Shown in pieces: positions 11,662 through 26,078 of a stretch of DNA of 45,600 nt. Position numbers and translations under genes: made by a program. Numbering within the stretch: the first letter of the stretch is position 1; every line of letters begins with the position of its first letter. Location: positions 1 through 45,600 of the forward strand of contig DASRSQ010000355.1 of NCBI GenBank assembly GCA_035656475.1. Direction: 5' to 3'. Origin of the DNA: Gemmataceae bacterium (GTDB taxonomy: Bacteria > Planctomycetota > Planctomycetia > Gemmatales > Gemmataceae). The notes below the pieces were generated by a model. The model searched no databases, was not told where the DNA came from, and was given only the letters and a program-made list of their open reading frames with translations.

Positions 11662-13530
11662 TCACGGCGTCCGTAGCTGATAACAAGCCGCTTCCTGGCC
11701 ATTGCGAACGTACAGCCGGCCGTGCGCGACGACGGGATGATTCCACGTCTTTCCCTCGATCGCCTTGAAGCGTGTCAGCTCTTTGTGCTCCTGCGGATTC
11801 GCCTCGAGCATCGCAACTTCCCCTTGTTCGGCCATGAGTAGCAGCAGGTCCTGGTCTGCGAGCAAGAGTGCCTGGCCGGTGCCATAGCCGCGCTCTTTCC
11901 ACTTCAATTTGCCTTTGTCGAGATCGACGCAGGCGAACAATTCACCGGTGAAGCCATACATGTGATCGCGGTGAGTGACGAAGTCGTTGAAGTAAGGGCT
12001 GATGGCGCGGGATTGCCAGACCTTCTCGGCGTCCCACTTGTCGCCATCATGGGCGACATGCAGCCGGTGCGTTCCACTGTTGAACGGGGAACCGAGCAGG
12101 AAGTCGGCGTTCCCCACGGCCCCGGGCTGGACGCAACGGGCGGCGCCGCTGAGCTTCCACTCGTAGTTCCAGAGCACGGCGCCGGTTTTGGGCTGCAACG
12201 CAAACAAGCCGTCGCCAGTCATCATGAGCGCCTGTTCGACACCATCGATCTTGGCGCCTTGCAGCGAGCTGTAGCTGAATTCGCCATCGCCGGCGTGCCA
12301 GGCAATCTTGCCGGTATCGGCGTGATAGGCCATGACGCATTTGTCCTTGGCGCCGGTGAAGACCAACACCATTCCTTGCATGACCAGCGGTGAAGCGGCG
12401 AAGCCCCACTGCGGCAGCTTGGCTTCGGAGTCGGCGAGAATGTCCCGCGACCAGAGTTCCTTGCCGCTCGCAGCATCGAGACAGCACAGCTTACCGGCCG
12501 CCCCCATCGCGTAGATCTTCCCGTCGTGAAAGGTCGGCGTCGCACGTGGTCCAACGCCGGCGACGGCTTCCCAGAATCGGGCGGGATACTCGTGAGACCA
12601 GAGGATCTTTCCAGTGTCCGCGTCATAACAGACGACCGCCTCGTTCTTGTCCCATTGTTCTTGCGTGAAGAGATGCTTGCCGATGACCGCGAACGATCCC
12701 CAGCCGGGACCGACCTTGTGCCGCCAAACAAGTTTCGGCGGGTTCTGGCCCCAGTCGGTCGCGATCTTGACGCCGGTCAAACGGCTATCGCGGTTCAGCC
12801 CGCGAAAACAGGGCCAATCGCCCGGCTGCAGAGCCAACGGCTTCGCATTCATTTCGACGGGCTTCGAGGTCTTCGACTTGGCAAGATCCGCGAGGAAATT
12901 GTCCTCGGCGCTCGGCGTCCAGCGCCAGTTGTTCCACATGGCCGCCTGGAAGGCGCCAGTGACGCCGTCAAAGCGGACGAGCGTGAAATACCCGCACACC
13001 ATCATCAAGCCGAGCAGCAACCCGCCCCGGCGGATCTGCCAGCTCGTGGAATACGAAGGAACCAGCCAAACCAGCGGATATGACACGACGAGCCAGAGAA
13101 TCCCAAACGCCTCCGCCAGCGGAAGCGTGTAAAAGACAAGCGGCATTCCCTTGATGGATTGATCCGCAAGGAGCAACATCAGTCCAACCATCAGAATGCA
13201 CGCCGCCGGGACGCCCAGGCGATCCGTCCAGCTCAGTCGGCTGAAGAAGAGCCACCACCCGAGGAGGGCGAGCGTGCCGACCATCGGTCCGATCAGCAAC
13301 GACATGAACCCCAATGGTTCGCCGTCAAAGAACAACTGAAGCGTTCCGACGATCGCCCATTGGACTGCGAAAATGGCGACGCCAGGCCACAGCCGCAGCC
13401 GTCGCTGCAGGCTCGGCGGAGACGCCATCGCTTCCGGCTCCGCCTGGCGCGCCGGCATCGGCTCGTCGGTAAATTGCGTGGTAGATTGCTTCAAGGGCTG
13501 ATCGGAAAACTGCGATTGAATGTCGCTCAT
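11662..13530 (-). CDS. Polytopic membrane domain fused to a PQQ-like (BamB-type) beta-propeller
   Basis: About 190 aa with 5-6 hydrophobic helices are followed by repeated propeller blades (AVVCYDADTGKILW, KLCCLDAASGKELW, CVMAYHADTGKIAW, LFALQPKTGAVLW, LFACVDLDKGKLKW). Confidence 0.75.
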   Translation of the reverse strand: MSDIQSQFSDQPLKQSTTQFTDEPMPARQAEPEAMASPPSLQRRLRLWPGVAIFAVQWAIVGTLQLFFDGEPLGFMSLLIGPMVGTLALLGWWLFFSRLSWTDRLGVPAACILMVGLMLLLADQSIKGMPLVFYTLPLAEAFGILWLVVSYPLVWLVPSYSTSWQIRRGGLLLGLMMVCGYFTLVRFDGVTGAFQAAMWNNWRWTPSAEDNFLADLAKSKTSKPVEMNAKPLALQPGDWPCFRGLNRDSRLTGVKIATDWGQNPPKLVWRHKVGPGWGSFAVIGKHLFTQEQWDKNEAVVCYDADTGKILWSHEYPARFWEAVAGVGPRATPTFHDGKIYAMGAAGKLCCLDAASGKELWSRDILADSEAKLPQWGFAASPLVMQGMVLVFTGAKDKCVMAYHADTGKIAWHAGDGEFSYSSLQGAKIDGVEQALMMTGDGLFALQPKTGAVLWNYEWKLSGAARCVQPGAVGNADFLLGSPFNSGTHRLHVAHDGDKWDAEKVWQSRAISPYFNDFVTHRDHMYGFTGELFACVDLDKGKLKWKERGYGTGQALLLADQDLLLLMAEQGEVAMLEANPQEHKELTRFKAIEGKTWNHPVVAHGRLYVRNGQEAACYQLRTP

Positions 13531-15520: not shown

Positions 15521-15546
15521 AACGTCGATTTTTTGAGCAGGCAAAT

Positions 15547-15635
15547 CGATCCACCTTTGAACGGGCAAGTGGATCGGCCTGTTCGTAGTGTATGTCACTT
15601 TCTTTCATCGTTGCCCGTGAACCTTGGAAGGAGGT
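15547..15635 (+). promoter_or_regulatory. Structured hsp20 5'UTR: two hairpins, the second sequestering the Shine-Dalgarno (RNA-thermometer-like)
   Basis: Hairpin 1: CGATCCAC (15547-15554) pairs with GTGGATCG (15569-15576). Hairpin 2: ACUUUCUUUC (15597-15606) pairs with GGAAGGAGGU (15626-15635), giving 10 bp including three G-U pairs, with a 19-nt loop. Confidence 0.35.
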
Positions 15636-15640
15636 CTCCT

Positions 15641-16081
15641 ATGCTGTCTCCGCTTCAGACGAATGGCTTGGTCCAGGTTGCCGAGCCGGTCAATCGCCTG
15701 TCCGCCATGTTCGATCGCTTTTTCAACGAAGACATTTTCCAACCCGTTGCGTCGCCGCAGGCTGGTGTCGCGGTCCCATTGGCGATGTGGGAAGATGAGG
15801 ACAACTATTATGTCGAGATCGATGCTCCGGGCATGACTGAGAAGGACATTGACATCTCGGTCCAGCACGGCGATCTCATCGTCAGCGGCGAGCGCCGCTG
15901 CGAGCGGACAGGACCTGGCTACGACACCCGTTCCTATGGCCGGTTCCAGCAACGCATCAGTCTGCCGACGGCGGCCAAGACCGACAAGGTCGATGCCAAA
16001 CTCGCCCACGGCGTTCTTTCGTTGACCTTTCCCAAAGGCGACGAAGCCAAGCCACGCAAGATCGCTCTTCGTAGCGAGTAA
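15641..16081 (+). CDS. Hsp20/alpha-crystallin family small heat-shock protein
   Basis: ATG 15641 sits behind GGAAGGAGG. The alpha-crystallin core is present: PLAMWEDEDNYYVEIDAPGMTEKDIDISVQHGDLIVSGER...SYGRFQQRISLP...KLAHGVLSLTFPK. The track ORF (from 15335) over-extends upstream. Confidence 0.9.
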   Translation: MLSPLQTNGLVQVAEPVNRLSAMFDRFFNEDIFQPVASPQAGVAVPLAMWEDEDNYYVEIDAPGMTEKDIDISVQHGDLIVSGERRCERTGPGYDTRSYGRFQQRISLPTAAKTDKVDAKLAHGVLSLTFPKGDEAKPRKIALRSE

Positions 16082-16675: not shown

Positions 16676-17068
16676 ATGGTTCTTTCGCTGCGAATTGCTG
16701 TTGCCGACGATCATCCCGACATGCGCGAATACTACCAGGAAGTGTTACCACGCCTTGGTCATCGCGTCGTCGTTGCCGCATCCAATGGCTGTGAGCTGGT
16801 CGAACAATGCCAAACCGCCGAGCCTGATTTGATAATCTCCGACATCAACATGCCCGAGATGGACGGTGTTACGGCTGTTGCAACATTGTGCCGGGAACGC
16901 CGGATCCCGGTGATTTTCGTGTCTGCCAATCAACACTGGGATTTAAGTGTGTGCGCCGAACTTGGCGTCGTGTTGGGCCGTGTCGACAAACCGATCAAGC
17001 TCTCGGAGCTTCAACTGATGATTGCAAGGGCCTTGTCTTACGTTGAGCCCGAAGGCAAAGCGGTTTAG
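16676..17068 (+). CDS. Single-domain CheY-like response regulator
   Basis: Receiver residues are present: IAVADD, DLIISDINMPEMDG and VDKP. 130 aa with no output domain. Confidence 0.85.
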   Translation: MVLSLRIAVADDHPDMREYYQEVLPRLGHRVVVAASNGCELVEQCQTAEPDLIISDINMPEMDGVTAVATLCRERRIPVIFVSANQHWDLSVCAELGVVLGRVDKPIKLSELQLMIARALSYVEPEGKAV

Positions 17069-17122: not shown

Positions 17123-20100
17123 ATGGGGGACATCATGAATTCACAATCGCCTGTGGGCGACACGACCAAACCTGCCATTACCAATCATCCCGAAACTGCC
17201 CGTCGCCCAGTTTCCCAGTTTGTCGTCGGCATCGGCGCCTCCGCTGGCGGCCTGGAAGCGATCGAGAAGTTCTTCGATCACGTCCCTGAAGACTCCGGCT
17301 TGACGTTTGTGATCGTCCAGCACCTTTCCCCCGATTTCAGAAGCCTGATGGACGAACTGTTGGCTCGCCACACCAAGCTCGCCATCCACCGTGTCGAAGA
17401 CGGCATGGCGATTCAGCCCAACGCCATCTACTTAATCCCGCGCAAAAAGAATATGGTCCTGTCGTTCGGCAAGCTGATACTGACAGACCAAGATCAGAAG
17501 CCCGGACCGAACCTGCCGATCGATATATTTTTCCAGTCGCTGGCTCAGGACATGGGGGACCGCGCTGTCGGCGTGGTCCTTTCCGGCACCGGTAGCGACG
17601 GGTCTCGCGGCCTCAAAGAGATTCACGAAGCGGGCGGACTTGTCATCGTGCAAGACCCGGAAACCGCGGGCTTTGACGGTATGCCTAAGGCTGCTCTCGC
17701 GACAGGGGTTGCTGATTGCGTATTACCGCCCGATGTGATGCCCGACAAGATTCTGCAATATGTTCAGCATCCGGTGCGAGCCGAGATTCGCAAGGCGTGC
17801 ATCGATGTGCAGTCGGGCGACGGACTATCCGCCGTCTTTTCTCTGTTGCGGCGTCATTTCGGCGTCGACTTTTCTCTTTACAAACCTAGCACCCTTGGCC
17901 GGCGCCTGGAACGACGTATGACGTTGCAAAACACGGGCTCTCTCGCGGATTACATGGCCATGCTGGAGGCCGACTCTGATGAACTCGATCATCTTTACCG
18001 CGACCTGCTGGTCGAAGTGACGCAGTTCTTCCGCGACAAAAATGCGTTCGATATCATCAAGAACGAGGTAATTCCAAAGCTGTTCGAGCAAGCGTCACCA
18101 GACGATGGAATACGCATCTGGGTGCCTGGCTGCGCGACGGGAGAGGAGGCATATTCCCTGGCCATGTTGTTCCACGAATTCGCCCAGGAGCACAAGCGGA
18201 ACATCGACGTCAAGATTTTTGCGACCGATGTGCATCGCACGTCGCTCGAAGCCGCCGGTGCCGGCGTTTACCGTGAGGCGAGCGTGCTTGATATTCCGCG
18301 GAATTACCTTGAACGCTACTTCGTGCAAAAGCGCGGCCAGTACGTCGTCAATCAGGACCTGCGCAAAATGGTGATCTTCGCTCCGCACAATCTCACCAAG
18401 GATCCGCCATTTACCAAGCTTGACCTCATCACCTGCCGCAACGTGCTGATCTACTTGAATCCGGCGACGCAACGGAAGGTGCTAACTTTGTTTCATTTTG
18501 GCCTGCGCACCGGTGGCGCTCTGTTCCTGGGGCCTAGCGAATCGGTCTCGGACCTGGAGGAAGAGTTCGATGTTGTCGACCGCCATTGGAAGGTCTTCCG
18601 CAAACGGCGAGACATCCGTCTGCATCCGGGCACCGGCCTGGCCACCATGCCGCTTTCCGAAACAGTGATGCTGTTGCGCAATCCGCTCGCCAATCCAGGA
18701 AAAAGTGATTCTCAACTTTCCGATATTTACGAACACCTGATGGGTCGCTACGTCCCACCCAGTTTGCTTCTGAACGAACATCACGAGTTAGTCCATGCCT
18801 TTGGCAACGCTCGCAGGTATCTCCAGGTGCCGGAGGGCAAGGCCACGACCGATGTCCTGAAAATGCTGGACAGTTCGCTGCGCATCGCCGTTAGTTCGGC
18901 GCTGCATCAGGCGGCGAAGGCCGACAAGCCCATTGTTTATTCCGGCGTGCGTTTCACGATCGACGGGCAGGACCGACTGATGAAGGTCACCGCGGTCTCT
19001 CTGCCCAACAAGCGGACAAAGAGCAACTTCTACCAGATTTGCCTCGAACCCGAGGAAGCGCTGCCCCCCGCGGCGCCGGCCCAGGCGTTCGATATTCAGG
19101 GCGAGTCTGCGGAACGGATCGCGAGCCTGGAACGCGAATTGATGTATACGAAGGAGCATCTGCAATCGACCGTCGAGGAGCTTGAGACCAGTAACGAGGA
19201 ATTGCAATCCACGAACGAGGAACTGGTCGCTTCCAACGAAGAGTTGCAATCGACCAACGAAGAATTGCACTCCGTCAATGAGGAACTTTACACCGTCAAC
19301 GCCGAACACCAGCGCAAGATCGAGGAGTTGACCCAGCTCACCAGCGACATGGACAACCTGCTGGCGAGCACCGAAATCGGCACGCTCTTTCTCGATCTCG
19401 ACATGAACATCCGCAAGTTCACGCCGGCGGCGGGTCGGCTGTTCAATCTTCTGCCCCACGATGTCGGAAGGCCGTTCAAGCACATCTCGAACAACTTGCA
19501 GATGGAGGTTGCCACGCTGGTTGGTTTGATCGACCGCATGCAGGCGGACGGCAAAGCCGTCGAGCAGGAAGTCGAATCGCCGCAAAAGCAGTCGTTCTTG
19601 ATGCGGATCCTTCCGTATCAAGCCCAGAACGGACAAGTTGTCGGGACCGTCTTGACCTTCATCGACATCACGGCGGTGAAACAAGCAAAACAGGAGCTTG
19701 GCGTCAGTCAAAGCCGGCTCGACGCCGTGCTCGACAATTCGACGGCAATTATCTTCGTCAAGGATCTTAACGATCGGTACACCGTGGTCAATCGCCGCTT
19801 CGCCGTGCTGATGCACGGCCAATCGCAAACCATCGTCGGCAAGACCGATTTTGAAATCTTCCCAGTGCCTCTGGCCCGAAGCCGGTACGAATACGATCAT
19901 CGTGTGCGTGACACACAGGCAGTCGTTGAAACCGAAGAGGTCTTCGAACTGCCCGACGGGCCTCACACTTACCTGACCATTCGCTTTCCGCTCAAGGATG
20001 GCCAAAATCGTGTCTACGCGGTTGCCGGCATTTCGACCGATATCACGGACCGCAAGCGTGCCGAGGATGAGGCACACGAGGCATTGAGCCGGCGTGACCA

Positions 20101-21178
20101 GTTTCTGGCGATGCTCTCCCACGAGTTGCGAAACCCCTTGGGCGCGATCCTGAACGCGACGCAAGTTCTGGAGCGCGACGGATCCGACGACGCCTTGAAA
20201 AACGAAGCTCGTGAGGTGATTCAGCGGCAAGTCGGTCAAATGTCGCGTCTACTGGACGATTTGCTCGATGTGACCCGCATCGCCCAGAATCGCATCCGCT
20301 TGCAAAAGGTGGTGCTCGACCTGCGTGAACCCATTACCGAGGCAATTGCCACCGTGAAGCCGGTGTATGAAACGGCGCGGGTAACGCTGGATCTGGACAA
20401 CTTTCGGGACGCACTGCCCGTTCTCGGCGATACCGCTCGGTTGCAACAGATGTTCGTCAATTTGCTGATGAACGCGGCAAAATATACGCCGTCTGGCGGC
20501 AACGTGCGCTTGTCAGTGGAAAAGACGGATGAGCAGATCGTCATTCGCGTGAAGGATTCCGGGGTCGGCATTCGTGCAGAGATGTTGGAAAGAGTTTTCG
20601 ATCTGTTCGTTCAGGCCAATGAAACACTTGACCGCGCGGAGGGGGGCATGGGCGTCGGGCTGACCTTGGTCCGGACCATTGCGGAAATGCACGGCGGCAC
20701 CGTGAAGGCGTTCAGCGATGGCCAGAACAAGGGAAGCGAGTTTGTTGTCCGCTTGCCGCTTTCAACGGAAAAGCCGACCATGGGAATGTCATCGCCTCCT
20801 CGTGATTCCAAGTTAGCGACGGTCGTGATCGTGGAGGACAATGCCGACAGCCGCCGCATGCTCGAAGCCATGCTCAAGTTGGACGGCTACACGGTGCATA
20901 CCGCGTCTGACGGCAACGAAGGACTCGATGCGATCCTGAAGCTGCGCCCGCAATTTGCGATCATCGATATCGGCTTACCCGGAATGGACGGCTACCAGGT
21001 CGCGAAACGAACGCGCGCGTTGTTGGCGAAAGACGAAGTTCTCCTGATCGCATTGACTGGATATGGCCGGCCAGAAGATCGTCGGGCCGTTTTGGAAGCA
21101 GGCTTCGATGACCACCTCGTCAAACCGCTCAAACCAAACGAGCTATCGCGGGTGCTTGGGAATGTAACAGAAAAATGA
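17123..21178 (+). CDS. CheB methylesterase - CheR methyltransferase - coiled coil - PAS - histidine kinase - receiver hybrid sensor
   Basis: CheB: [30 protein letters not shown]. CheR: [29 protein letters not shown]. Also a heptad NEEL repeat and PAS segments. H-box [14 protein letters not shown]-box [20 protein letters not shown]-terminal receiver VVIVEDN...[12 protein letters not shown]...LVKPL. The start is ATG 17123 or 17135; the track gives TTG 17099. Confidence 0.9.
19160..19300 (+). repeat. 21-nt (heptad) tandem repeat encoding xS/TNEELx coiled coil
   Basis: Encodes [47 protein letters not shown]. It lies inside the kinase CDS between the CheR and PAS regions. Confidence 0.6.
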
Positions 21179-21235
21179 CGGCCGCGAGTCACCGACGCTC
21201 CAAAGTCCTTGCACGGGGTGGGCAGTGAGAAGAGT

Positions 21236-21270
21236 GGGTGGGAACCGGGAATTCTCCGGATTTCCCACCC
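21236..21270. terminator. Strong hairpin between convergent genes (bidirectional terminator-like, no T-tract)
   Basis: GGGTGGGAA-CCGG-GAATTCT-CCGG-AT-TTCCCACCC forms 9 + 4 bp with a 2-nt bulge. It sits between the kinase stop (21178) and the CsrA-REC stop (21387). Confidence 0.4.
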
Positions 21271-21386
21271 GGACGCCACTTGGGAAAGAGCCTTGCGAAA
21301 CGGGTCCGATCCATGGACTGCCGATGCTTCATCGGTTCGCATCTTCCGACAAAGTGGCGAGGCTTCGGCAATCTCTCAAGTCCAAC

Positions 21387-22094
21387 TTAGTTCAGCGACA
21401 GATGCAATTCGTCAACAAGGTTCTTTGGGTTAACGGGCTTCGTAAACCAGCGGTCGATGCCTTGGGAGCCGGGGTCGATGCTGCATTCCGAAGGATCGGC
21501 TCCGCTAACCGCGAACACCTTCAGCCCCTCGTAGGCCGCATTTCGTCGGATCGCAGCGACGGTCGTGGGCCCATCACAACGCGGCATTCGCATGTCGATC
21601 AGAATCACATCGGGACGATCGTGCGATTGAAGGTAGTCAAGGGCATCCTGGCCATCGCAGGCGGTCTCCACTTTGACGCCATGCAGACGCAAAAACTCCG
21701 CCAGGAGCGCGCTCTCGTTGCCGTTGTCTTCGACGAGGAGCGCGCGAATCTCACGCTTGGGGCTCCCGCCCGTCGCCGCCAGTTCTTGCTCCAGTGCCGA
21801 GAAGTCGCGCAAGGCGCTGTCGAGCGTTTTCCCGGCATCCTTGTCCAGGCCCGCTTGCAATTGCCGCTGAGCGAGATGGACGGCCAGGCACGCCGTGTGC
21901 AAGCGATTGCGGAGCCGATGGCGCTCGGAAACGTACTGCGTCGATTTGGCAATTTCTTCGCGAACGATCGGCACCGACGGAGGCGCATCAATGCCAAGGC
22001 GAACAACATTTCCCTTGACGCTGCACACCTCCACGGTGACGCCCAGGGTGGGGAAAAAGATCTTCTCTTTGGGCTTTCGCGACAGGACCAACAT
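21387..22094 (-). CDS. CsrA (carbon storage regulator) RNA-binding domain fused to a CheY-like receiver domain
   Basis: Residues 1-50 are MLVLSRKPKEKIFFPTLGVTVEVCSVKGNVVRLGIDAPPSVPIVREEI, compared with E. coli CsrA [47 protein letters not shown]. Residues about 116-235 form a full receiver (VEDN, VILIDMRMP, FAVSG, FTKP). ATG 22094 follows AAGGAGA. Confidence 0.85.
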   Translation of the reverse strand: MLVLSRKPKEKIFFPTLGVTVEVCSVKGNVVRLGIDAPPSVPIVREEIAKSTQYVSERHRLRNRLHTACLAVHLAQRQLQAGLDKDAGKTLDSALRDFSALEQELAATGGSPKREIRALLVEDNGNESALLAEFLRLHGVKVETACDGQDALDYLQSHDRPDVILIDMRMPRCDGPTTVAAIRRNAAYEGLKVFAVSGADPSECSIDPGSQGIDRWFTKPVNPKNLVDELHLSLN

Positions 22095-22101
22095 TGGAGT
22101 C

Positions 22102-22132
22102 TCCTTTCCAAGCCGCGCCTCGCCTCCGCGCG
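22102..22132 (-). promoter_or_regulatory. GGA-in-loop hairpin plus GGA-rich Shine-Dalgarno in the CsrA-REC leader (candidate CsrA autoregulatory sites)
   Basis: The minus-strand leader is ...CGCGC-GGAGGCGAG-GCGCG-GCUUGGAAAGGAGACUCCA-AUG. It has a 5-bp stem (22128-22132 with 22114-22118) and a GGA-containing loop. Two more GGA triplets lie across the SD. Confidence 0.35.
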
Positions 22133-22482
22133 CAGAAACTGCACGGCCTCAGCCTTGAAATTGTCAATCGATAGAAACGATTAGCGACGAAGAGTTGGAA
22201 GAAGAATCCACACCTCCGTGCGCAGATCTTTGTGGAGACATCCATGTCGCGTTACAGAGGGAATCCTTCCCAAAAGAGATGAAATTGTACAACAACCGAC
22301 GTTTTCGGTCAAGGTTTTTTCTTGAGACCGTGGAGCCTTGTTGTGTGGCCCATGATGTAGATCGTCGCTTATTTGAGGTCTATTCTGGCCTCCTACCGCC
22401 CTTGTCAATCGAGGGTAACCTACTGTGCAACAATCGATAAAATGGCTTGAAAGGCCAGCATTCCCGAACTGAGCGACTCGGC

Positions 22483-23456: not shown

Positions 23457-23974
23457 CTACGCCGCCAAGAGCTGCCGCGCCGGCGAGCGATTCGGCGTTT
23501 CCTGAACGATGCTCAGCACGTGGCCCGCTCCCATGGAATGACCGACGACGTGAACGCGCCTTGGGCCGATCGGATATCGTTTCCGCAATTGTTCGAGGAT
23601 TGCCGCAGCATTGGACGCGGCGCTAACGCCGAATAATCGGTTTGCACGGGTGGCGACCATGATCCAGTCGCGCTCTTTGCAAACCTTTGCGGTGACTCAG
23701 CCCAGCGCGTTTCGGCCGGTGCGGCATCCTGCGAGACGAGCACATGTCGGGCACGGTCAAGCGCTTCCCCAGCCCTGCCGAAGCGGAACAAGAAAAAGGA
23801 ACGTACCGCTTGATTGAGATGAGGGACCGCCCGCTTCCGTACGTCGACGTCGCTACACTTGTCCCACGCTTTTTCGAATGGAATAAGCCGTCGACCCCAT
23901 TCGCATCGATCCGCGTGTCCGGAAGCGAAAGCTGGCAGCGTCAACATCACCAGCAAAGCGACAAATCGCGTCAT
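23457..23974 (-). pseudogene. Alpha/beta-hydrolase (GHSMG nucleophile elbow), apparently frameshifted
   Basis: ATG 23974 gives signal peptide MTRFVALLVMLTLPAFASG. That frame stops being sensible near 23700. A second frame (open after the stop at 23697-23699) reads VTAKVCKERDWIMVATRANRLFGVSAASNAAAILEQLRKRYPIGPRRVHVVGHSMGAG and ends at 23457. Confidence 0.4.
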
Positions 23975-24015
23975 CGGCCAAACTCCGGGCATGCTTCGAC
24001 TTCGTTGGAACGCAA

Positions 24016-25269
24016 TCACGGTTGTTGCCAACGGTAAACGGCCATGGCGTTTAACTCACGAATGAACAATTCGTTGCCACAAACCGCCAGATGGGCCCAT
24101 GTGTTCTGGCCGACCTTTAGTCGATTGATGATCTGCAATTCCTTGGGATTAGCCTGAATCAGCAGCAGTTCGCCGTTCTGATCCAGGGCGAGAATGCGTT
24201 TCCCCTGCGCCACCATGCTCCAATACTGTCCGAAGGGCGCGTCGCTCGTCCAAGTCCGATTGCCGGAGTTGAGGTCGATGCAAGTGAAACGCTGATTCTG
24301 CAGATGCAAATACGCATGGCCGTCAATGATGACGGGTGATGACATGTAGGCCTGGGTCTTGCTAGTCCAGGATTCAGCAACGCTGAAGCGGTCCTTGTCG
24401 AGCGACACTTTGTAAAGCCAGGCCTTGTTTCCGTAACTGCTGGTGAAAATCTCCTCACCGACCATTGTTGGCGTGAGGATGTTCATGCCACGGAAAGACG
24501 GGACGACCTGCGACCAGAGGACATCGCCGGTGTCGAGATCCACCCCCGCCAGTTTCTCCCGGCCCTGCACAATGAGTTGACGTTTGCCGGCGATGCTCGC
24601 GATGATCGGCGACGAGAACGCTGAGCCGTACATGCCGCCTTTGTCTTTGAGAGCCCGCCAGATGATCTTGCCTGATTTCTTTTCGAGCTTGGCAACCGAG
24701 GCGCCGGCTTGCACGTAGACGAAATTGCCGTCAACCAAGGGCGAGCAGACAAATCCAAAATCGGGAAGCGAGGTCTTGAGCTCCTTGACGAAATCAACCC
24801 TCCATTCTTCTTTTCCCGACTTCGCATCCAAACAGACGAGCACATCGCGCATTCCGGCGACGTACAGGCGTTCGCCGTCGTACGCGGGAGTTGAGCGAAT
24901 CCAGCTACCGTTGGCGGCGGCGAAGAATGGCACCGACATCGCCCCCTTCCATTCCGCGCGCCAACGTTCTTTCCCAGTCGCGCGATCCAAGGCGAATACG
25001 ACCTCGGATTCCTTGTTTCGCGTTTCCGTTGTAAACACGAGATCTTCGGCGACGATTGGTCCCGAGTAGCTAGGCCCCAGTGGGACCCGCCAAAGCAGTT
25101 TGAGCGACTCCTTCGTCAAACGATCGGGCCAGGCTGCGCCGCGGACCTGACCGTCCCGCGCGGGGCCTCGCCATTGTGGCCAGATGGCGTCACCCTTTTC
25201 TTGGGCGCCTAAATCGACAACCCAACACAACGTCAATGCCAAGACAAGGCAAACGCGTGATCCGATCAT
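24016..25269 (-). CDS. Secreted PQQ-like (BamB-type) beta-propeller protein
   Basis: ATG 25269 follows GGAG and overlaps the upstream stop (ATGA). Signal peptide MIGSRVCLVLALTLCWVVDLGAQ. Repeated blades: VVFALDRATGKERW, VLVCLDAKSGKEEW, LAGVDLDTGDVLW, FTCIDLNSGNRTW. Confidence 0.8.
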   Translation of the reverse strand: MIGSRVCLVLALTLCWVVDLGAQEKGDAIWPQWRGPARDGQVRGAAWPDRLTKESLKLLWRVPLGPSYSGPIVAEDLVFTTETRNKESEVVFALDRATGKERWRAEWKGAMSVPFFAAANGSWIRSTPAYDGERLYVAGMRDVLVCLDAKSGKEEWRVDFVKELKTSLPDFGFVCSPLVDGNFVYVQAGASVAKLEKKSGKIIWRALKDKGGMYGSAFSSPIIASIAGKRQLIVQGREKLAGVDLDTGDVLWSQVVPSFRGMNILTPTMVGEEIFTSSYGNKAWLYKVSLDKDRFSVAESWTSKTQAYMSSPVIIDGHAYLHLQNQRFTCIDLNSGNRTWTSDAPFGQYWSMVAQGKRILALDQNGELLLIQANPKELQIINRLKVGQNTWAHLAVCGNELFIRELNAMAVYRWQQP

Positions 25270-26078
25270 TGGCAATCTCCTTGAGAACGGTCGAGGGATT
25301 TCACTTTTCTTGCCGGCCAGGGGAAGAATGCGCTCGTCCGCGCGACGTAGTCCGCGTAATCGGGCTTGCTCTCGCGCAGGCTGTGTTCCAACAGCGTCAC
25401 TCCAGAGACGCGGAGCAAGAGGAATGACATCAGTAGCGGCGAGAGCATCGTCCACCATGTGCCACCAGCCCCGAGAGCAACGAAGTACAGCCCCCACCAG
25501 ACCGCGAAATCGCCAAAGTAATTAGGATGCCGTGTGTAGCGCCAGAGTCCGCGATCCATGACCTTGCCGGCATTCCGAGGATCGGCTTTGAAATTCGCCA
25601 GTTGCCAGTCACCGACTGCTTCGAAGAGAAAGCCACCGGACCAGATCATTGTGCCGATCGCGTCCAGCCAACCCAGCGGCGCGTCATCGAGTTGGCCGAC
25701 AACGATTGGCAAGGCAATGATGTTCATGATGAGGCCCTGCAGTAGGAACACGATGCCGAGGCTGACGATCCAAAATCGGGGCCCGATTGCCGCGCGCATC
25801 GCTTGATATCGATAATCCTCGGGACTGCCGAATTTGCGAACACCCAGGTGGACGGCTAGTCGCAGTCCCCACACCGCGGTCAAGCCGAGAAGTAGGTACT
25901 TGCGAGGGGATTCGTATGTCGTCAGGAAAAACGTTAATGCCGAGATCACAACGAAGCCTGGACCCCAGAACACATCCACGATACTCACGTCGCGCAAGAT
26001 CACGCTGACGCTCCACAGTGCCGTCATGAACACAAGCGTCACCAGTAGATTCAAGGCTAGCAATTCGAGTAGATTCAA
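25266..26078 (-). CDS. DUF1295 family membrane protein (steroid 5-alpha-reductase / ICMT-like fold)
   Basis: Motifs VSIVDVFWGPGF and GLWRYTRHPNYFGDFAVWWGLY. The likely start is TTG 26078, which overlaps the upstream stop (TTGA). The track ORF runs to 26207 inside the upstream gene. Confidence 0.8.
   Translation of the reverse strand: MNLLELLALNLLVTLVFMTALWSVSVILRDVSIVDVFWGPGFVVISALTFFLTTYESPRKYLLLGLTAVWGLRLAVHLGVRKFGSPEDYRYQAMRAAIGPRFWIVSLGIVFLLQGLIMNIIALPIVVGQLDDAPLGWLDAIGTMIWSGGFLFEAVGDWQLANFKADPRNAGKVMDRGLWRYTRHPNYFGDFAVWWGLYFVALGAGGTWWTMLSPLLMSFLLLRVSGVTLLEHSLRESKPDYADYVARTSAFFPWPARKVKSLDRSQGDCQ

Follow-up and report, generated by a model that had tools for sequence, protein, structure and literature searches.

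CsrA proteins are major post-transcriptional regulators; the characterized members are stand-alone proteins of 60–75 amino acids (aa) that are controlled from outside by sponge small RNAs (sRNAs), FliW, or CesT, and CsrA autoregulation is known. A gene in a 45,600-nucleotide stretch of DNA from a Gemmataceae bacterium (Planctomycetota; GenBank assembly GCA_035656475.1, contig DASRSQ010000355.1, positions 1 to 45,600; hereafter the window) is built differently. Its ATG-initiated open reading frame (ORF) of 235 aa (21387–22094, minus strand) joins a CsrA RNA-binding domain, a helical hairpin, and a phospho-receiver (REC) domain in one polypeptide, and we refer to it as the CsrA-REC gene. The conservation of the RNA-contact and phospho-acceptor residues, the synteny with a kinase gene, and the GGA motifs of the leader suggest that the product is a phosphorylation-controlled, autoregulated CsrA-type translational regulator in which the pathway of the partner kinase terminates, a reading to which we give somewhat more credence than doubt.

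The combination of domains has been catalogued before. As cited in PMC2222644, Galperin's 2006 classification of response regulators lists CsrA as an RNA-binding output class, which is the same pairing of REC and CsrA in one polypeptide. Public databases annotate proteins of the family as "response regulator" or "carbon storage regulator CsrA." The examples in the 2006 classification are reportedly planctomycete proteins too. The novelty claimed in a first-pass annotation of the window, made by a model from the DNA letters alone, therefore does not extend to the class; its statement that no member has been characterized agrees with our literature searches, which found no characterized CsrA-REC protein (the original 2006 and 2010 Galperin and 2009 Gao and Stock censuses lay outside the search). 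The architecture is thus known but unstudied, and will not surprise readers versed in response-regulator censuses; as far as we can tell, the partner kinase, the H-box-like hairpin, the elements in the untranslated regions (UTRs), and the size of the family are new descriptive detail.

The CsrA and Receiver Domains

Residues 1–53 (21936–22094, minus strand) match the Pfam CsrA family profile (PF02599) as a whole domain, over profile positions 1–52 of 53 (E = 2.1e-16; 60.0 bits, cut-off 27), and can also be aligned to the PDB entries 1y00, 7yr6, 2bti, and 1vpz. The alignment with residues 1–52 of E. coli CsrA (1y00), first described as running position for position, nearly does so, with a single one-residue insertion near residues 15–16. 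The E. coli RNA-contact set (L2, L4, R6, R7, V40, V42, R44, and I47) is kept in full on strands beta1 and beta5 as L2, L4, R6, K7, V41, I43, R45, and I48, R45 here corresponding to E. coli R44. Across 330 full-length relatives, L2, R6, R45, and E47 each show a conservation of 99% or more, and L2, L4, R6, R/K7, G34, A37, P38, R45, E47, and I/L48 are invariant or almost so in the family. A monomer model of the protein, made with AlphaFold2 from an alignment of 112 sequences (A1; mean predicted local distance difference test score [pLDDT] 83.9, predicted template-modeling score 0.51), places strands at residues 11–14, 19–27, and 30–36 of the CsrA part and leaves beta1 and beta5 unformed, as expected of a strand-swapped dimer.

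The receiver (residues 119–230; 21405–21740, minus strand) matches the Response_reg profile (PF00072; E = 8.7e-19; 68.2 bits, cut-off 30.2), so that both domains of the fusion predicted in the first-pass annotation score above their Pfam cut-offs. Every active-site residue named there is present (E122-D123, the acceptor D167 [codon 21594–21596], S197, and K219-P220), together with W216 at the aromatic switch position of CheY. D167 is kept in 329 of the 330 relatives (99.7%); D123 and K219 are conserved at 100% and S/T197 at about 99%, W216 is invariant in alignment A1, and R6, R45, D123, D167, and K219 each reach at least 99.7% in the 330 sequences. The modeled receiver alternates beta and alpha elements, as in a (beta/alpha)5 fold. 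Its Foldseek matches have a target-side template-modeling score (TM-score) of about 0.9 and include RR468 and CheY4 (0.90–0.92 for these two), PhoB, and the SLN1 receiver; the same search against the PDB returned no structural precedent for the whole protein, the matches covering the receiver only (query-side TM-score at most 0.48). The conservation is what one would expect of a functional RNA-binding domain and a functional receiver, able to be phosphorylated, in one protein. The sole family member in which D167 is replaced (P0069) carries a phosphomimetic-type D167E change and also lacks H59 and N63 of the hairpin described below; it is a single case.

The NCBIfam CsrA equivalogs NF002469 and TIGR00202 score 46.4 and 44.9 bits, short of their cut-offs of 73 and 70.1, so the protein should not be named carbon storage regulator. 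By these profile scores it belongs to the CsrA and receiver families of Pfam but is no equivalog of E. coli CsrA, and the label of "global" regulator given to it at first is unsupported; moreover, a stand-alone CsrA is encoded beside the fused form in at least one related genome. In that genome (locus L041), a 71-aa CsrA-like ORF (1548–1760) scores 29 bits against a hidden Markov model (HMM) of the family's CsrA domain and lies 8 kb from the CsrA-REC gene, which indicates that some of these genomes hold both free and fused forms of CsrA.

Family and Distribution

The fusion is widespread. A search of 5.8 billion proteins gave 1,895 matches, and the best 120, which were inspected, are nearly all 233–263 aa long and have the CsrA and receiver domains, at identities as low as 47%; the two domains occur together in more than 110 independent full-length proteins. 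An exhaustive profile search of 1.84 billion representatives of 50%-identity clusters, at a threshold of E ≤ 1e-30, returned 2,309 clusters. The best 150 representatives are nearly all full-length, at about 240–290 aa, with a few fragments and extended or inserted forms (197–339 aa), and none of these 150 is long enough to hold the three parts and a HATPase_c domain besides. The size and uniformity of the family argue for selection on the entire three-part protein.

Among GTDB genomes, taken one per species, relatives are encoded at 409 loci, essentially all of them planctomycete, and some genomes have two copies. The best 80 loci all belong to Planctomycetota (Gemmatales, Isosphaerales, Pirellulales, Planctomycetales, and Thermoguttaceae), and one cultured carrier is Stieleria tagensis TO1_6 (locus L030). 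Two contigs that carry both the gene and its kinase (L051 and L062) are labeled "uncultured Alcaligenaceae bacterium"; they are probably mis-binned metagenome-assembled genomes.

An assembly or frameshift artifact that fused separate csrA and receiver genes, a possibility raised when the fusion was first noticed, can be set aside as having a negligible probability. The same unbroken ORF occurs in hundreds of independent assemblies (NCBI, ENA, JGI, and Logan), the hairpin that spans the junction is itself conserved, and the 409 loci and 2,309 clusters leave the fusion real.

The Partner Kinase and Gene Neighborhood

A hybrid histidine kinase gene (17123–21178, plus strand) lies tail to tail with the CsrA-REC gene, as described in the first-pass annotation; its ORF opens at a TTG (17099), and the first ATG is at 17123. 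Its domain order by Pfam is CheB-CheR_N-CheR-PAS_10-PAS_4-HisKA-HATPase_c-REC, with no Hpt domain. When all ORFs within 6 kb were clustered in 81 loci, the kinase cluster was found in 51 and any other neighbor cluster in at most five. Of the 53 loci whose flanks extend 4.5 kb or more in both directions, 39 have the kinase, and tblastn adds L005 and L051 (39–41 of 53). The two genes are usually within a few hundred bases of each other, convergent or co-directional, and the pair is present in all eight extra loci from different samples that were reached by an exact-protein look-up. The suggestion that the hybrid kinase is a candidate phosphodonor is thus strongly supported by synteny, this being the only neighbor conserved family-wide. 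In tblastn searches with the window's neighboring genes, too, the kinase alone recurred near the CsrA-REC gene.

Domain searches of ten partner kinases show a constant HisKA-HATPase_c-REC core behind sensor ends that vary (CheB-CheR-PAS, CheB-PAS, MASE3-PAS, PAS only, or none). Pfam finds no Hpt domain in these ten or in the kinase of the window, and no Hpt partner appears among the neighbor clusters or in a crude scan for the motif H-x-[hydrophobic]-K-G within 6 kb, the rest of the genomes being unsearched.

Directly upstream of the kinase is a single-domain receiver gene (16676–17068, plus strand; PF00072, 79 bits), also proposed as a phosphodonor at first; it is not a conserved partner, its relatives lying near the CsrA-REC gene in just two of 80 loci (L001 and L005). 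Neither HlyIII nor the ORF at 23513–24031, both considered as conserved neighbors, is conserved beside the gene in the surveyed loci.

Between CheR and PAS_10, at residues of about 670–760 (window 19100–19300), the kinase carries near-identical short repeats with a weak coiled-coil-type Pfam match; a long spurious ORF (18788–20239) runs antisense to them, and the segment is the densest GGA-hairpin region of the plus strand, probably owing to its GAGGAA codons. In one locus (L086, 5892–9999) the partner takes the form of separate CheB, CheR, and PAS-HisKA-HATPase-REC genes instead of one protein of 1,350 aa, which may reflect gene fissions or assembly frameshifts. At another (L087, 2437–4616), and at that locus only, FliL and two FliM/N_C flagellar genes lie directly upstream of the CsrA-REC gene; canonical CsrA is tied to flagellar regulation in other phyla. 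The window also encodes two PQQ_2/BamB-like beta-propeller proteins (11662–13530 and 24016–25497, minus strand), relatives of which occur near the gene in L038, L059, L066, L076, and L084 at 22%–25% identity, probably by coincidence in propeller-rich planctomycete genomes.

The Helical Hairpin

The segment between the two domains had been described as a helical linker of about 65 aa. The helices are borne out by the AlphaFold2 model, which predicts two of them (residues 57–80 and 84–108) at a pLDDT of about 90; the segment is no plain linker, being a conserved hairpin (residues 57–108; 21771–21926, minus strand) with an H-box-like first helix. It follows a tether of variable length that is modeled at low confidence (residues 50–56; pLDDT below 50 at 51–54). 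The first helix carries the motif H-x-L-R-N-R-L-[HN]-T-A, which resembles the H-box of the neighboring kinase (SHELRNPL) and begins with H59 (codon 21918–21920).

The resemblance is found at the level of profiles. Aligned by hhalign with 49 dimerization and histidine phosphotransfer (DHp) regions of the kinases at these loci, the linker alignment gives a probability of 87.5% (P = 3.6e-6, score 32.1, 39 columns) and places H59 on the phospho-accepting His of DHp helix 1; 22 reversed or column-shuffled controls scored at most 16.3, with probabilities of at most 4.1%. Single-profile searches returned less. Pfam finds nothing in the linker of the window's protein taken alone, even at E ≤ 10, and on 60 family linkers it gives weak HisKA matches in seven (best E = 0.0063) and SPOB_a matches in two. 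A plain linker HMM run against 8,441 ORFs recovered only the family itself, with no kinase at significance. A PDB profile search gave just a weak match resembling tetratricopeptide repeats (TPRs; 2hr2, E = 0.005), and TPR-like families match the turn of the hairpin about as well as HisKA does. The residue after the His is Arg, versus Glu or Asp in HisKA.

The hairpin does not match the HisKA profile above its cut-off, the protein has no HATPase_c domain, and the Pfam Hpt profile (PF01627) finds nothing in it; the H-x-x-K-G motif is absent, the sequence reading HRLRNRL. The protein is not demonstrably a HisKA or an Hpt protein. The hairpin is conserved and probably serves in dimerization, and a kinase DHp domain is a possible origin for it. 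In alignment A1, 110 of the 112 sequences have H59, but in the wider set it is kept in 306 of 330; the other 24 are real His-less hairpins, of which 23 retain D167. An obligatory relay role for H59 was downgraded for this reason; a phosphotransfer role in the main subfamily is possible but is not needed throughout the family.

These observations bear on an alternative that we regard as doubtful, in which the protein is a self-contained end of a phosphorelay: the hairpin would be a degenerate DHp domain in which H59 takes the phosphoryl group from the REC domain of the kinase and passes it to D167 of the same dimer. Tentatively, and with no greater probability, the protein would then be both phosphotransferase and terminal regulator, in the manner of Spo0B and ChpT. 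The hhalign result, in which H59 falls on the phospho-His of the 49 kinase domains while the controls stay low, points this way, as do the near-constant His within H-x-L-R-N-R-L in A1, the weak HisKA and SPOB_a matches (7 and 2 of 60 linkers), the Hpt-less HisKA-HATPase-REC form of all ten partner kinases examined and of the window's own, the absence of an Hpt-like protein from the crude motif scan within 6 kb at every locus, and the loss of H59 from the one D167E sequence. Against it stand the unequal conservation of the two residues (H59 in 306 and D167 in 329 of 330) with 23 His-less variants that have a perfect receiver, the missing Pfam match of the window's linker, the plain HMM that reached no kinase significantly, the TPR-like matches of about equal strength, the Arg in place of Glu or Asp, and the position of the His, just two residues from the start of the predicted helix; the genome could, besides, encode Hpt proteins elsewhere.

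At two loci where the kinase lies upstream of the CsrA-REC gene on the same strand (L031 and L074), small ORFs directly upstream of the gene (L031, 9487–9762; L074, 9437–9820) are weakly hairpin-like (E of about 0.05–0.1: LRIRDELHSVQIGLDLLRQEMLSG). They have no CsrA domain, no receiver, and no His at the position of H59.

The 5' Leader

Leaders from 12 loci of the window's clade, with proteins 63%–93% identical, align well. The leader of the window has a promoter-like site, TTGACC-17-TACAAT (22284–22312, minus strand; 10 of 12 matches to the consensus in a scan), and the sigma-70-like arrangement CTTGAC ... TGTAAAAAT is kept in 11 of the 12. Three hairpins, each with GGA in its loop, follow on the same strand. 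The first (GGGA-AGGAU-UCCC; 22259–22271) is paired in 95.8% of alignment cells and the second (GACA-UGGA-UGUC; 22237–22248) in 91.7%, and both are also predicted by RNAalifold; the second is close to the consensus reported for CsrA from SELEX (systematic evolution of ligands by exponential enrichment). The third (GAUCUGCGC-ACGGAG-GUGUGGAUU; 22205–22228) has a 7-bp core paired in 96.4% of cells and one compensatory change from C-G to G-C, in L081; for this one RNAalifold favors another pairing, of GGAGG with a downstream CUCC. Together the three are paired in 93.6% of cells, versus 40%–60% when the partner columns are slid.

The ribosome-binding site, GGAAAGGAG (22101–22109, minus strand), contains two GGA motifs and stands 6 nt before the ATG, and GGAAAGGA is invariant there in all 12 leaders. 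The string GAAAGGAG occurs 65 times in 1.35 Mb, 39 of them at ribosome-binding sites of CsrA-REC genes, and 52 of 70 tandem-GGA ribosome-binding contexts belong to these genes. Family-wide, 80 leaders hold 152 GGA-loop hairpin sites where dinucleotide shuffles give 69 ± 7.6 (maximum 93), an excess of about 11 standard deviations; there are 1.9 such hairpins per leader on the sense strand versus 0.66 on the antisense strand, and on the minus strand of the window this leader is the densest cluster. The GGA hairpin predicted at first for the gene's own leader is thus borne out more strongly than it was put, by three conserved hairpins and a family-wide enrichment. The layout is that of a classical CsrA target, which points to autoregulation.

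An Hsp20 gene that lies beyond the kinase (15641–16081, plus strand) and recurs in the window's clade (L001–L003, L083, L086, and L088) has a similar ribosome-binding region, UUGGAAGGAGGUCUCCUAUG. Its leader (15535–15655, plus strand) contains a sigma-54-like promoter, TGGCACGC-N3-TTGCT, and an inverted repeat, AACGGGCA...UUGCCCGU. Hsp20 genes account for four of the 18 tandem-GGA ribosome-binding contexts in 1.43 Mb that do not belong to CsrA-REC genes, and the Hsp20 transcript may be one of the targets or act as an RNA thermometer. In the mechanical ORF list this gene opens at a GTG (15335; 248 aa), with the HSP20 domain in just residues 151–244; the conserved ribosome-binding site indicates that the true start is the ATG at 15641 (146 aa).

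The 3' Untranslated Region

The 140 nt past the stop codon (21224–21363, minus strand) form a structured 3' UTR whose conservation exceeds that of much of the coding region; across nine loci, 72 columns are invariant. In the consensus fold an outer stem is followed by a CCGAU...AUCGG hairpin, a GUCC-AUGGAUC-GGAC hairpin with GGA in its loop, and an intrinsic terminator (GGGUGGGAA...UUCCCACCC and a U-run); the closing pair shows A-U/G-C covariation. A covariance model of the element (R1) scores 84–162 bits in ten loci, including one outside the training set (L001, 84 bits), and matches weakly at the same position in L052, L063, L042, and L012 and nowhere else in 1.4 Mb. No Rfam family matches in the window, this element included. 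GGA hairpins are modestly enriched in 3' UTRs family-wide (79 versus 52 ± 7). The element could act in cis, or it could give rise to a small RNA, derived from the 3' UTR, to which the CsrA domain binds.

GGA elements conserved at either end of the gene's own mRNA also fit a reversed logic, in which the CsrA domain is the input: GGA-rich RNA, from these UTRs or from an sRNA, would alter the geometry of the dimer and gate the exchange of phosphate between the kinase and the receiver or hairpin. The protein would then be an RNA-gated phosphate sink or a modulator of the kinase pathway. The order of its parts is sensor-like, with an N-terminal ligand-binding domain, a DHp-like hairpin, and a C-terminal REC, as in hybrid kinases and unlike classical response regulators, and the receiver is closest to those of hybrid kinases and to the SLN1 receiver. 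We nonetheless think this reading improbable, both as to the gating and as to the role of a sink: no output is evident past the receiver, single-domain receivers already serve as phosphate sinks without a CsrA domain, and the near-perfect conservation of the RNA contacts, with a GGA motif overlapping the Shine-Dalgarno sequence, fits ordinary CsrA-type repression.

Proposed Mechanism

If the protein is a phosphorylation-controlled translational regulator, it would form a homodimer through the interleaved CsrA fold and a four-helix bundle contributed by the hairpins. The partner kinase would sense a cytoplasmic signal through its PAS domains, and the phosphoryl group would pass from it to D167, either directly or by way of an intermediate His. 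Upon phosphorylation the receivers might pack anew on the hairpin or on the CsrA part, exposing or hiding the two RNA-binding faces; the flexible tether favors control by such occlusion or re-packing over a rigid helical lever. The active form would bind GGA hairpins and GGA motifs at Shine-Dalgarno sequences and so control translation, and the gene's own leader would be among the bound sites, giving negative autoregulation.

Several observations weigh against this scheme. The variable, low-confidence tether makes a rigid allosteric link between CsrA domain and hairpin unlikely in the model. Direct phosphotransfer, implied by the first-pass statement that the fusion would put CsrA directly under His-Asp signaling, is an assumption, the partner being a hybrid kinase with a REC of its own and no Hpt domain. 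Covariation in the three leader hairpins is not significant (the one compensatory pair is equaled by 83 of 500 shuffles), and the 121-nt leader of the window folds like its shuffles (z = 0.21). The GGA sites of the leader might be bound by a stand-alone CsrA instead; L041, at least, encodes one. Finally, about a quarter of the loci with complete flanks have no adjacent kinase.

The last of these fits a constitutive CsrA paralog, whose receiver would be decorative or purely dimerizing while the neighboring kinase signals elsewhere, and some receivers are known to function without phosphorylation. Pseudo-receivers, however, typically lose active-site residues, whereas D123, D167, S/T197, and K219 are kept here at 99%–100%, and the pairing with the kinase stands far above that with any other neighbor; we therefore consider a constitutive protein very unlikely.

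A more elaborate version of the regulator, to which we assign a rather low probability, would be a three-part device made of the CsrA module, a kinase-derived hairpin carrying H59 as second relay His and fed by an Hpt-less hybrid kinase, and the terminal receiver, with an autoregulatory loop or titration through the GGA hairpins of the leader and the structured 3' UTR. A relay that ended in this way in one polypeptide would switch translational repression directly, a device without characterized precedent. It would represent a third mode of CsrA control, beside sponge sRNAs and FliW/CesT, widespread in Planctomycetota. A CsrA domain covalently tied to a receiver would mean direct phospho-control of translation, with few steps between a signal and the ribosome-binding site; little is understood of regulation in the phylum to which the family belongs. 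The question is now testable, with a named candidate kinase, candidate RNA ligands (the three leader hairpins, the tandem-GGA ribosome-binding site, and the 3' UTR element), and the residues D167 and H59.

Comparison with Known Systems

The ANTAR regulators (AmiR, NasT, EutV, and PdtaR) are likewise receiver proteins with an RNA-binding output, and in them phosphorylation controls dimerization by way of an interdomain coiled coil. An RNA bearing the EutV binding site also titrates EutV (PMC7602753). In ANTAR proteins, unlike the present one, the receiver is N-terminal and the RNA-binding fold is helical and unrelated to CsrA; they act by transcription antitermination at paired hexaloop hairpins, not by translational control at GGA and Shine-Dalgarno sites.

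Spo0B and ChpT resemble this protein in their helical hairpin, the first helix of which opens with a conserved His; they occupy a relay position downstream of a receiver and have no ATP-binding activity. They are separate proteins with a degenerate CA-like domain, whereas the DHp homology of the present hairpin is moderately supported and its His is dispensable in about 7% of members.

Likeness to CsrA, RsmA, and RsmE is closest at the RNA-binding surface, where the beta1 (L2, L4, R6, R/K7) and beta5 (V41, I43, R45, E47, I48) contacts are kept, and in the target layout of the gene's own leader, with GGA-loop hairpins and a GGA motif overlapping the Shine-Dalgarno sequence. The protein differs from them in its 180 extra residues of hairpin and receiver, in the pairing of its gene with a kinase gene, and in scores below the equivalog cut-offs.

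The BarA-UvrY and GacS-GacA systems resemble the proposed pathway in that a hybrid histidine kinase ultimately sets the activity of CsrA. No sponge RNA gene was found in the window (no Rfam match). In those systems the link is indirect, the response regulator activating transcription of the sponge RNAs CsrB or RsmZ; here a covalent link ties the receiver to the CsrA domain itself.

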